From positions 3,782,001 through 3,846,000 of the forward strand of contig NC_043012.1 of NCBI RefSeq assembly GCF_006345805.1: DNA of 64,000 nucleotides, written 5' to 3'. The notes under the pieces are model-generated. The model saw nothing but the letters and a program-made list of their open reading frames with translations, did not search any database and was not told the DNA's origin. This DNA is from Octopus sinensis. Taxonomy: Eukaryota. Below, piece after piece: positions 3,294 to 55,901 of this stretch. Numbering within the stretch: position 1 is the first letter of the stretch; the number at the start of each line of letters is the position of its first letter. A program made the position numbers and the translations under genes.

Positions 3294-4804
3294 ACACACA
3301 TACAGAGTTGTATGTATACGCATTTATGTACACACACATGTAAACACACACAGTACTATAAGCTACCAGACTTGATTTGGCACTTGGAAAGCTATATTTC
3401 TTTGCCTAAAAGCTAATTTTTACATTCACTTCACATTTCAATAGCAAGAATTGAATTATTTCTGTCTTTTACCAAAATCTCATATTATATAATCAATAGC
3501 TTCCCCGCAGACGCACTCACTCACTCTCTCACCCTCTTTTGCTATTTCTCACCCTTTTTTTGCCCTCTCTCACCCTCTCACTCACATTTTCCCTTCCAAA
3601 TTTGATTAGTCTTGTCCTTTTTAATTCTACTTGATCGAAGGTCTGACTTGAAGAATCAATCAAATTCTTTAAATGATTTACTCTGAAGCAGTAAGCCAAT
3701 TGTTTCTCTATCAGATCTTGGCTTCTCTTTACTTTTATCATCATCATCATAGTTGTTATTGCTTTAACATAATATTCCCCTTCATTGCTCTTGAGACAAA
3801 GTTTTGATTTAATAAGCAATCACCAGTTGCAAATATCTTTTACATTGTCGGTTTTAGCTCTTTAATTTGATAAGAATCCTCTGTTTGTTGTTTTCTTTTA
3901 AACATCTCTTTATCTATTTCTGGAGGGAATTTTTTGTTTGTCTTTTTTATATCCGTTTTCTCTTTCCAATTTAATTTATTAATTACTTGTGGGTGGTGAA
4001 GTTATCTGTTACTATGAAACAGAGAAATAGATTTATTGCCACATATTTTGTTTTGTCCGCTCTCTCAGTGTAGGCATAGCTGTGTGGGTAAGAGGTTGAT
4101 CTCTCAACCACCAGGTTGCATGTTCAGTCCCACTGCACAGCACCTTAAGTGTTTTATGTCGTAGCCTTGGGTTGACCAATGTTTTGTGAGTGAAATTTGG
4201 TATAAGGAAACTGTACAGAAACCTGTTCTATATGTCTGTGTGGGTGGGTGTCTGGCTCTTAAAATGATGTGATGATGTGAAGTAATGCTTCATGAGACGC
4301 CAAACAGAAGCTGGTGCTTGTGTCATCAGGCAGAGACAGCAGGATCAGTGAGAGGAATATAAAGAATGCATCCGTCTTTTGTCTTTTACTTGTTTCAGCC
4401 ATTAGACTGTGGCCATGCTGGAGTACCACCTTGAAGAACCTTAATGAAATAAATCAACCCCAGGACTTATTCTTCAAAACCTGGTACTTTTTTTTTATCA
4501 GTATCTTTCACCGAACAGCTAGGTTACAGGGATGTAAATACACCAACACCAGTTGTCAAGCAGTGGCTGGGGGACAAACATACACATACATAACAGTCCT
4601 CTTTCAGTTTATGTGTGCTAAATCCATTCACAAGACTTAGGTCAGCCTGAGGGTATAGCAGAAGACACTTGCTCAACATGCCACACTGTGGGACTGAACT
4701 TGGAACCATGTGGTTGAGAAGGAAATCAAAAAAGGCTTGGCTGACAGTAGAAATTGTCACACAATTGAAGTAGATCATCAAACATCAAACATCATTTCCT
4801 TACT

Positions 4805-5189
4805 GTTTTATATTTTAGAGATGATCAATTATTTACATTATTTACACTGGACAGACATTGTCCTCATCTTGTTTGTTGTTACCACAAGGTTTCGGCTGAT
4901 TTACTCTCCAGCCTTCATCTGGTGTCCTGGTGGAATTTTGAACCCAACCCTGGTGTAATGGTTAAGAGCGTGGGCTACTAACCCCCAAAATTCCAAGTTC
5001 AATTCCAGGCAGTGCCTTGAATAAATAATAATAATAGTTATATCGGCAAAAATATACCTTAGGAATGAGAACCCAGGGTTGGGTTCAAAATTCTACCAGG
5101 ACACCTGATGAAGGCTGGTGAAAAAATCAACCGAAACATTGTGGTAACAACAAACAAGTTGAGGATACATATCCGTCCAATGTAAATAG
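4805..5189 (+). mobile_element. Non-autonomous Penelope-like/retrozyme-like element: inverted hammerhead-bearing arms around a tRNA-like head
   Basis: 13-bp direct repeat TCATTTCCTTACT at 4792-4804 and 5190-5202. Inverted arms 4839-4953 and 5073-5188. Centre has A-box-like TAATGGTTAAG and B-box-like GTTCAATTCC. CTGATGA...GAAAC at 5105-5137. Confidence 0.7.
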
Positions 5190-5209
5190 TCATTTCCTTA
5201 CTCCATCCC

Positions 5210-5650
5210 ATGGATTTGGGTGTAATTTCTGATATTATGGCCTGCTACGTTCTTTGAAGAAACAACTGGCCATGGTAACCATTTTAACGGGGACCTTTTG
5301 AAGAACTACTGTGCCATGGGGGTCATAGATAATGAAGTAACCGAGAACTGCGTGAACAGAAGTTGGAAGAAGCTATGTTGAATAGCATACCTTCATTTCT
5401 TGGAATTTTACAAAGAAATAGCACCTATAGTCATGACATAATTGAACCGGTCGGTGAGAGGAGAAAGCAATAGGTCAGTGCTAAACATTTGAAAGGGCTT
5501 CATAGAGTCTCGTGGTGAGACCTTATTTATTGAAGAGCTGCAGGACTTAGCACAGCAACGCATCCAAAATGAGCCTGAAATCCCCTGTTGTGGGGCCAGC
5601 AACACCAGAAAGAATTCTTACTGCTAAACTCCTCAATGAAAGCATTTGGA
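5210..5650 (+). pseudogene. Degraded Tigger/pogo-like transposase fragment
   Basis: Broken frames give ENCVNRSWKKLC and ESRGETLFIEELQDL, reminiscent of Tigger C-terminal motifs. Weak. Confidence 0.3.
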
Positions 5651-5756
5651 TTTTTCAGTCATTTGGCAATACTTATGACCTTTGTTTGTCTTAGTGCTAC
5701 TGTTAAAAATTGCCTGTCAAGCTTATAACTATAACTCTATGATATGATATACTCTT

Positions 5757-6068
5757 GAGACCCCCTTCGGTCATGACTGACCGTGGGATCGCACCTAGAA
5801 AGTTACCCTCCCAGGCACAAGTCCAAGCAAGGTTGTTTATGGAAGACCAGCAGTCGCCCAGGCATATCAGCCTCCCCTCTCCACGCCCCCAGTGTTATCC
5901 AAGGGAAAGGCAAAGGGGCCGATACAGCTTGGCACCTGTGACATCGCAACTCATTTCTACAGCTGAGTGAACTGGAGCAATGTGAAATAAAGTGTCTTGC
6001 TCAAGAACATAACACACAGCCTGGTCCAGGATTCGAACTCACAACCTCACGATTGTAAGCTTGAGCCA
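5757..6068 (-). mobile_element. SINE family D (tRNA-like head, CORE-like centre); second copy 35720-36053 (-)
   Basis: Two near-identical copies. Minus strand carries GAGTTCGAATCC B-box and TCTTGAGCAAGACACTT. Confidence 0.8.
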
Positions 6069-6070
6069 TG

Positions 6071-54560: not shown

Positions 54561-54793
54561 CAATGGCAGTGCATCAGCATGGCTGCAGCTCTGAGCTGAA
54601 ACTACAGAAAAGAAAAAAAAATGTCAATATTCTTCCCAGTGGCATTAATGGTGCGACTGAAATGATGTGATGGCTTTCAACACAGTCTGATACCATGTTA
54701 AAGAGTTTCCAGGAGTTTATTCTTGTATTCTTTTACTTGTTTCAGTCATTTTAAATGTGGCCATGCTAGAGCACTGCCTTTTAAAATGTAAGT

Positions 54794-54865
54794 CACCCCT
54801 GCAGGGAATCAAACCCTGGTCTCCTGCATGACAGACGGGGACACTTACCACTATACTACCACGGT
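54794..54865 (-). pseudogene. tRNA-Asp(GTC)-derived sequence, fused to a retroposon tail
   Basis: TAGTATAGTGGTAAGTGTCCCCGTCTGTCATGCAGGAGACCAGGGTTTGATTCCC aligns to metazoan tRNA-Asp. CpG decay and a broken acceptor stem. Confidence 0.85.
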
Positions 54866-55901
54866 GATAAATTCCTGAAAGTTATTAATTAGATTATGAG
54901 TATGATCGTTACCAGCGTCACCTTACTGGCACTTATGCCTGTGCTAGTAGGGTGCCAAGAACACATCTGAGCGTGATCGTTGCCAGAGCAGCCAACTGGC
55001 TTCTGTACCCGTGGCACCATTCGAGCGTGATTGTTACCAACGTCACTTCACTGGCACGTGTAAAAAGATTCGAGTGAGGTGATTGCCAGTACCGCCTGAC
55101 TGGCCCCCATGCCGGTGGCACATAAAAAGCACCCACTACACTCTCGGAGTGGTTGGCGTTAGGAAGGGCATCCAGCCGTAGAAACTCTGCCAGATCAAGA
55201 CTGGAGCCTGGTGCAGCCATCTGGTTCGCCAGCCCTCAGTCAAAATCGTCCAACCCAAGCTAGCATGGAAAACAGATGTTAAACGATGATGATGATGATG
55301 AAACCAAACAAATTTGTGAACCAGTACACTTCACAAGTATTTTCTTTTCTAATGGCTCTGCAGCCATGGTTGTTGCAGGGTTTCTAAGATTGGCAAAATG
55401 AACAACAATTAATTGTTTTAAGTCAGTAGTTTTTTATCTTTTATCATTTACTTGTTTCAGCCATTGGACAGTGGCCATGCTGGAGCTTTATCTTAAAGGG
55501 TTTAGTTGAATAAATTGACCCCACTCCTTAAGTCTGGAGTTTATTCAGTTGCTTCTTGTTGCCAAACTGCTATGTTATGAGGCCATAATGAAATCAACAG
55601 AGGCTGTCAAACATGGGTGGGGTGGGACATTCACACACACACACACATGACAGGCTTTCTGTCTGCCTGATTAACTCACAAAGCATTGGTTTGCCCAGGG
55701 CTATAGTAGAAGATACTCATTCAAGGTGCCATGCTGTGGAAGTGAACCTGAGCCCATGTAGTTGCCAAAGCCAGCTTCTTAATCACACAGCCATACCTGC
55801 AGGAAGAAAAAAAACACATGCAGGTAGAACATGCTCTGAATAAGGAGGATGATTGTATTCAGTGGTTAATCTGAGCCTTAGGAGATGAAGGTAGGTGAGC
55901 T

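Follow-up and report, generated by a model that had tools for sequence, protein, structure and literature searches.

A tRNA-derived head within the hammerhead-bearing pseudo-LTR of a Penelope-type retrotransposon in Octopus sinensis

The locus and its parts

SINEs, which are non-coding and transcribed by Pol III, and their autonomous partners, which are coding and transcribed by Pol II, are treated as separate by design. A short insertion in the genome of Octopus sinensis raises the question of where a repeat belongs that carries a tRNA-like head between hammerhead-bearing arms of Penelope type. An initial annotation had proposed a SINE/retrozyme hybrid, that is, a SINE-like element transcribed by Pol III, processed by a ribozyme, and mobilised by a Penelope enzyme.

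The window analysed is a stretch of 64,000 nucleotides (contig NC_043012.1, positions 3,782,001 to 3,846,000). The insertion is a 385-bp unit between 13-bp direct repeats, and its inverted arms of ~115 nt (4839-4953 and 5073-5188) are 88.8% alike. These features are as first described, as is the tRNA-like centre with A- and B-box-like sequence, and the head of the corresponding family aligns to genomic tRNAs. The left arm has a further 34 nt that are absent from the right arm, and the plus-strand arm is 93.6% like the majority of its subfamily. The parts are listed in Table 1.

On either side of the locus lie further repeat copies, both tRNA-headed SINE-like and interspersed ones (window ~4070-4230, 4385-4710, and 5765-6070), and these presumably resemble common octopus SINEs. 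Elsewhere in the window, ARAGORN calls a tRNA-Asp(GTC) on the minus strand (54792-54866) whose sequence looks degenerate.

Table 1. Features of the insertion, in window coordinates
Feature	Position	Strand	Basis
Left target-site duplication (TSD), 13 bp	4792-4804	+	perfect direct repeat with 5190-5202
Inverted, 5'-truncated arm, corresponding to family positions 129-278; ends at the distal RT-start point	4805-4953	-	
34-nt PLE 'tail' extension, in this arm alone; continues into the ORF in coding copies	4805-4838	-	
Minimal hammerhead, U4 and G16.2 changed, predicted inactive	4881-4927	-	sequence
tRNA-derived head, missing its first ~7-11 nt at the inversion junction	4951-5020	+	
A-box-like sequence, first 3 nt common to the inverted arm	4951-4961	+	sequence
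B-box-like sequence	4996-5006	+	sequence
(AAT)n linker and short 5' leader	5021-5064	+	
5' start of Penelope ORF, comprising the hammerhead and an AC-rich region, up to the proximal RT-start point	5065-5188	+	homologous to P0004 N-terminus
ORF ATG; frame interrupted by a stop in the window copy	5065	+	
Minimal hammerhead: core 5105-5111 and 5133-5136, cut site after 5140	5099-5145	+	sequence
Right target-site duplication, 13 bp	5190-5202	+	perfect direct repeat with 4792-4804

A family of short head-tail units

The 385-bp unit was used to search the 2.72-Gb genome (G000), which yielded 5,717 first-look candidates, 40 of which were scored. The family's short unit comprises 278 nt, with the head followed by (AAT)n, a leader, the hammerhead, an AC-rich part, and the tail, and it occurs as two subfamilies. 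Exact motifs occur 10,148 times for the tail and 3,719 times for the head, against 0 for reversed controls, so the head-arm junction is not unique to the window. Because the exact tail motif is present in 42 of 92 similarity-selected arms, the genome is estimated to hold ~20,000 or more tail arms. The tail is also present in all 30 loci selected by their heads, a set that includes a few same-locus entries or segmental duplicates. The co-occurrence of head and ribozyme tail that had been suspected from the window is thus borne out, and with the same junction recurring across loci, chance nesting of a tRNA SINE in a Penelope fragment at this locus is extremely improbable.

Two inverted arms with variable breakpoints are found at 37 of 57 loci (from two similarity searches, with the window counted and three repeats dropped). 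A TSD score of at least 10 is reached by 12 of the 37 two-arm loci, 1 of the 20 single-arm loci, and 6 of 342 controls. TSDs, for which the initial annotation had proposed a check across loci, are a mark of the two-arm copies (12/37 versus 1/20, p 0.02). One arm usually ends at position 278 and its partner ~30 nt earlier. In four public runs, loose ends likewise lie at two points ~34 nt apart; these runs are assembled contigs whose RNA status is a guess, and contig depths were left unused as expression evidence. Arm ends also cluster at reference position 255, in part because the alignment breaks at a 9-nt repeat, so the proximal end rests on the public-run ends and on arms ending at 242-251, not on this cluster.

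The head is part of a coding Penelope element

PLE families found in the genome by a Pfam GIY-YIG search were rejected as the partner of the short units, with the tail present at 0 of 30 loci. Because these families lacked the tail, the partner was sought from the sequence upstream of heads. This sequence, which is common to several position-ordered loci, reads as a GIY-YIG C-terminus, and a protein search with it gave 2,325 candidates. Of these, 30 ORF-end loci were fetched; a repeat (pLTR) piece follows the ORF end in 26 and the head in 22. PLE RT motifs lie further upstream of the GIY-YIG part, and the RT and GIY-YIG ORF stops ~30 nt before the head. A coding RT/GIY-YIG element with the same arm exists in the genome, and the proposal of a Penelope enzyme as the mobiliser is supported.

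The order of parts in the coding unit is head, (AAT)n, ATG, hammerhead and tail, RT, GIY-YIG, stop, ~30 nt, and head again, and the hammerhead and tail are the first ~55 codons of the ORF. One full-length copy of 2.7 kb (L203, identical to L244; G000:C2) begins at head +1, passes through (AAT)n, the ATG, and the hammerhead, continues beyond the tail into the ORF, and has a second head at its end. The tail likewise runs on into the ORF in L186 and L194, one from each subfamily, and the tail frame aligns with the N-terminus of a database protein (P0004; 38% over 178 aa, E 2e-36). The tRNA-like head and minimal hammerhead thus form the pseudo-LTR of a retrotransposon of Penelope/Poseidon type that the same genome carries.

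Where the subfamily 1-like divergent copies agree with one another against the subfamily 2 majority, 36 differences are synonymous and 16 non-synonymous, whereas decay differences are 1024 synonymous to 1898 non-synonymous (subfamily contrast p 1e-6), which indicates that both subfamilies were coding. No intact ORF was seen among the copies, and the longest open frame listed has 551 aa. RT and GIY-YIG motifs are present in a single ORF, which has 1,084 homologs with RT domains; a Pfam scan of a 550-aa copy returned no family. The closest homologs of the protein are 55-68% identical to it. The protein has no Zn-finger-like linker between RT and EN, and another PLE family of this genome has one. 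The absence of this linker and an ORF that starts at the hammerhead appear to fit Penelope/Poseidon; the accompanying tree comprises 12 database homologs and one other PLE family from this genome. The second PLE family with a Zn-finger-like linker (for example, L037 and L038) is apparently young; many of its copies have a 781-aa open frame and score identically. In L038 (~2360-2400), there is a hammerhead-like motif whose core is altered.

The coding copies bear directly on the proposed hybrid, under which an independent SINE/retrozyme would need ribozyme processing and parasitise a separate Penelope enzyme. Short head-tail units are far commoner than copies with an ORF (exact motifs: 10,148 and 3,719; ORF candidates: 457-2,325) and behave like SINEs, and a self-propagating short sublineage is possible. 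However, coding copies of either subfamily link the ORF to the head at both ends, the tail forms part of the coding region, and the arms run uncut across the cut site. Moreover, the 117 loci checked for architecture hold single or head-to-head arms and occasional partial tandems, with no tandem array of the short unit among them, contrary to what a retrozyme would lead one to expect. An independent hybrid is therefore very unlikely for this family, and the idea is largely refuted. What stands of it is the tRNA-like head, the type I hammerhead, and the Penelope-type anatomy; what falls is the separate SINE, because the head lies inside the pseudo-LTR of the coding element, between the stop of one ORF and the start of the next.

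The tRNA-derived head and the 5' ends of copies

The majority heads of the family resemble tRNAs. Compared with 12 genomic tRNAs, they score z 2.7-6.8 against shuffles, with z of ~5 or more for 10 of the 12, and the best matches are Arg-TCT (49-51 of 73 positions identical) and Ala-TGC. The head of the window copy has z of at most 4.2 against the same tRNAs. In the majorities of both subfamilies, the A- and B-box sequences match the Pol III type. ARAGORN and Rfam do not call the head. Rfam applied to window positions 4000-6000 finds no tRNA and no hammerhead, its sole match being the generic long hairpin MIR7533 under the gathering score, and it finds nothing in four other family copies. A degenerate-pattern search for a close source tRNA gave 0 matches, with the comparison covering 12 tRNA genes.

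Most copies that carry a head also start there. In two position-ordered samples (54 loci after removal of 6 repeats), of the 45 arms that include a head, 36 have their start at -8 to +21 relative to it, and the remaining 9 extend at least 62 nt into the ORF, with no start in between. Five distinct copies have a head ahead of the ORF start; four of them begin at +1 to +4, and in the fifth an ORF end lies upstream.

A short native hairpin is located just before the head (-7 to +1), and fold-back is frequent there, so the pile-up of 5' ends could represent an RT stall site at the hairpin and not a transcription start. The element might then be an ordinary Pol II or read-through Penelope element that carries an old tRNA fragment or SINE head as a passenger in its pseudo-LTR. 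Templates that cross the head (the 9 of 45 arms, and L236), which appear as partial tandems with upstream ORF sequence, point the same way, as does Drosophila Penelope, whose internal promoter is described as LINE-like and TATA-less (PMC2377424). However, clean starts at -5 to +2 without inversion occur in several copies, including L121 and L142, which have TSD-like repeats. A passenger head also fits poorly with A and B boxes that follow the Pol III pattern in both subfamily majorities, and leaves the absence of T4 runs over 2.7 kb unexplained. Taken together, a passenger head is unlikely, although it deserves to be kept in mind, and the preferred reading is that the head serves as a Pol III promoter.

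Of 80 related PLE loci from metagenomes, 32 have an ORF of at least 1.2 kb; among these, a scan for A and B boxes gave one match (L283), which is in flanking DNA outside the repeat of the element. Thus, no second tRNA-headed PLE was found in this metagenomic set, whose members have 28-45% identity.

T4 runs

TTTT acts as a Pol III terminator. The sense strand of the 2,714-nt majority unit contains no run of four or more T; this majority was built over 59 ORF-bearing loci, with a depth of 3-8 copies near positions 300-700. In its 2,277 coding nucleotides, 2.6-4.3 T4 runs are expected (P 0.037, 0.026, and 0.008 under three nulls). Real copies have 31 T4 runs in 69,810 nt, and one T4 site is common to two of seven divergent copies. 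The other PLE family of this genome has 6 T4 runs per 1.8 kb, as expected, and the 32 related metagenomic ORFs of at least 1.2 kb (from 80 loci) have 401 versus 312 expected. None of the 31 related ORFs with at least 3 expected T4 runs is free of them; a control ORF of 1.4 kb with 2.7 expected (L300) also has none. The deficit is modest for a single element.

The hammerhead

Merging the two window arms had been noted to give a minimal type I hammerhead, and this merged sequence equals the column majority over 92 family arms. The CUGANGA and GAAA core looked for in the family consensus is intact in 64 of the 92 arms, and in 22 of the 92 it is accompanied by C-G-U-H; most core losses are CpG-type changes. 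The pseudo-LTR hammerhead has the short stem I, the bulged nucleotide 5' of stem II, and the palindromic 15.2-16.2 by which the minimal type is defined in the available part of PMC4209133. Changes that look inactivating were correctly noted in each window copy: the plus-strand arm has a stem II mismatch and G16.2 changed to A, and the minus-strand arm has U4 changed to A and G16.2 changed to C. The minus-strand hammerhead is predicted to be inactive, and the plus-strand one inactive or weak.

In unconstrained folding, stem II and the dimer helix form, and the active core does not, so this folding does not speak for activity. Minimal PLE hammerheads are described as cutting weakly and only as multimers (PMC4209133, in part), and in the account of an anole element, cleavage required protein and insertion did not require cleavage (PMC11167929, in part). 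The family hammerhead is likewise predicted to cut only as a dimer or with the help of protein. Inserted arms keep sequence on either side of the cut site, and the hammerhead is probably dispensable for insertion.

Proposed route of insertion

The locus is probably a decayed head-to-head pseudo-LTR insertion of a tRNA-headed coding Penelope/Poseidon-type element, likely copied from a short Pol III RNA that started at the head. We infer the Pol III start because 5' ends pile up at the head and T4 runs are absent. As read from the sequences of copies, the route would involve Pol III initiation, copying of short RNAs in trans, priming at two nicks, and joining of cDNAs. Pol III would initiate at the head of any copy. 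From the 3' repeat, this would give an RNA of ~300 nt with the enzyme-binding and RT-start region, which the enzyme of the element could retrotranspose in trans, as for a SINE. From the 5' repeat, Pol III could read through the entire 2.7-kb ORF. At the target, GIY-YIG would nick both strands ~10-19 nt apart, and each nick would prime RT from one or the other of two start points separated by ~34 nt. The two cDNAs would then join at their 5'-truncated ends, in the window over 3 nt of microhomology, which would produce inverted arms, a one-sided tail, and a TSD.

A more far-reaching reading is possible, though we would stop short of calling it probable: an autonomous coding retrotransposon of ~3 kb, transcribed by Pol III end to end from a captured tRNA promoter, with a frame purged of T4, that emits a built-in SINE from its own 3' repeat. 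That Pol III reads the whole ORF and that this RNA is translated is speculative, and we lean slightly against it. A Penelope element whose own repeat supplies a tRNA promoter would merge the roles of a SINE and its partner, and would show how a SINE can arise directly, with no chimeric fusion. Should Pol III make the full-length RNA, the question arises how an uncapped 3-kb RNA is translated. A large share of the tRNA-headed repeats in this genome belongs to a PLE and not to a LINE-driven SINE.

Relation to known elements

All structural features tested mark the element as a PLE, and by family definition it is neither a SINE nor a retrozyme. It has the traits of EN+ Penelope-like elements, namely an RT and GIY-YIG ORF, a pseudo-LTR with a minimal hammerhead, an inverted 5'-truncated copy, and a one-sided tail of 30-40 nt. 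Like tRNA SINEs, it has a tRNA-derived head containing A and B boxes. Unlike them, it is not a non-coding family of its own that has only a LINE-type 3' tail in common with its partner, although its short copies work like SINEs. Tandem repeats that each carry a type I hammerhead, which define non-LTR retrozymes, are absent from the 117 loci.

The PAc element of the green anole (PMC11167929) similarly has a single ORF with RT plus GIY-YIG at the C-terminus, and the start of its ORF overlaps the hammerhead. Two RT-start points also yield a tail of 30-40 nt in PAc, and both strands are cut and extended. Inverted truncated copies such as those of this family are described for PLEs (PMC8557442, in part). 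In contrast, the available text on PAc describes no tRNA-derived head or Pol III promoter, whereas in the octopus family 80% of the arms with a head start there, and the unit is free of T4.

The closest parallels, as far as the available descriptions go, are TRIMp3 elements and schistosome hammerhead repeats, both of which are non-coding. The TRIMp3 elements Cassandra, Helenus, and Ajax (PMC10886601, in part) also have a small-RNA-derived Pol III promoter inside a terminal repeat. However, they are non-autonomous LTR elements of 0.3-1.3 kb, whereas here the head is within the coding element itself; the same source argues that autonomous partners of Pol III-promoter elements need Pol II. Schistosoma Sm-alpha and Sj-alpha (reviewed in PMC6765202) have a Pol III-type promoter beside a hammerhead in a retroposed repeat, as here. 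In contrast, they are non-coding tandem repeats with monomers freed by cleavage, and the part of the review consulted describes no linked RT ORF. Animal non-LTR retrozymes (bioRxiv 10.64898/2026.07.22.740005) share the type I hammerhead, the relation to PLE pLTRs, and mobilisation in trans. They are defined by tandem repeats, and the available text of that preprint makes no mention of tRNA, promoter, or octopus.

Octopus SINEs (Ohshima and Okada 1994, via PMC4824008 and PMC4758252) are cited as having tRNA-derived heads as well. Of these, OR1 and OR2 are cited in the same sources as CORE-SINEs. A 2026 octopus repeat annotation (PMC13282606) lists 190 PLE families, and ribozymes are unmentioned in its available text. 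A tRNA-headed coding PLE was not found in the literature searched; the family may be catalogued under some name in Repbase, Dfam, or SINEBase.

Further observations on copies

In seven loci (L065, L074, and L118; L103, L116, L218, and L227), family arms start at (AAT)n immediately after the (AAT)n end of two other repeats, whose upstream sequences are each common to several loci. This suggests joining or targeting through AAT microsatellites. At TSD edges (for example, window 4801-4804, L063, L069, and L087), the first 2-4 nt often match ORF sequence beyond the tail, hinting at a possible short target-template pairing at priming, unlike in the in vitro report for the anole element. A head-to-head copy (L213/L219; G000:C4) has both arms extending 400 nt beyond the tail into the ORF, which implies that reverse transcription began deep within the ORF. 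Several copies, moreover, pass straight from the 5' part of the ORF to the repeat.
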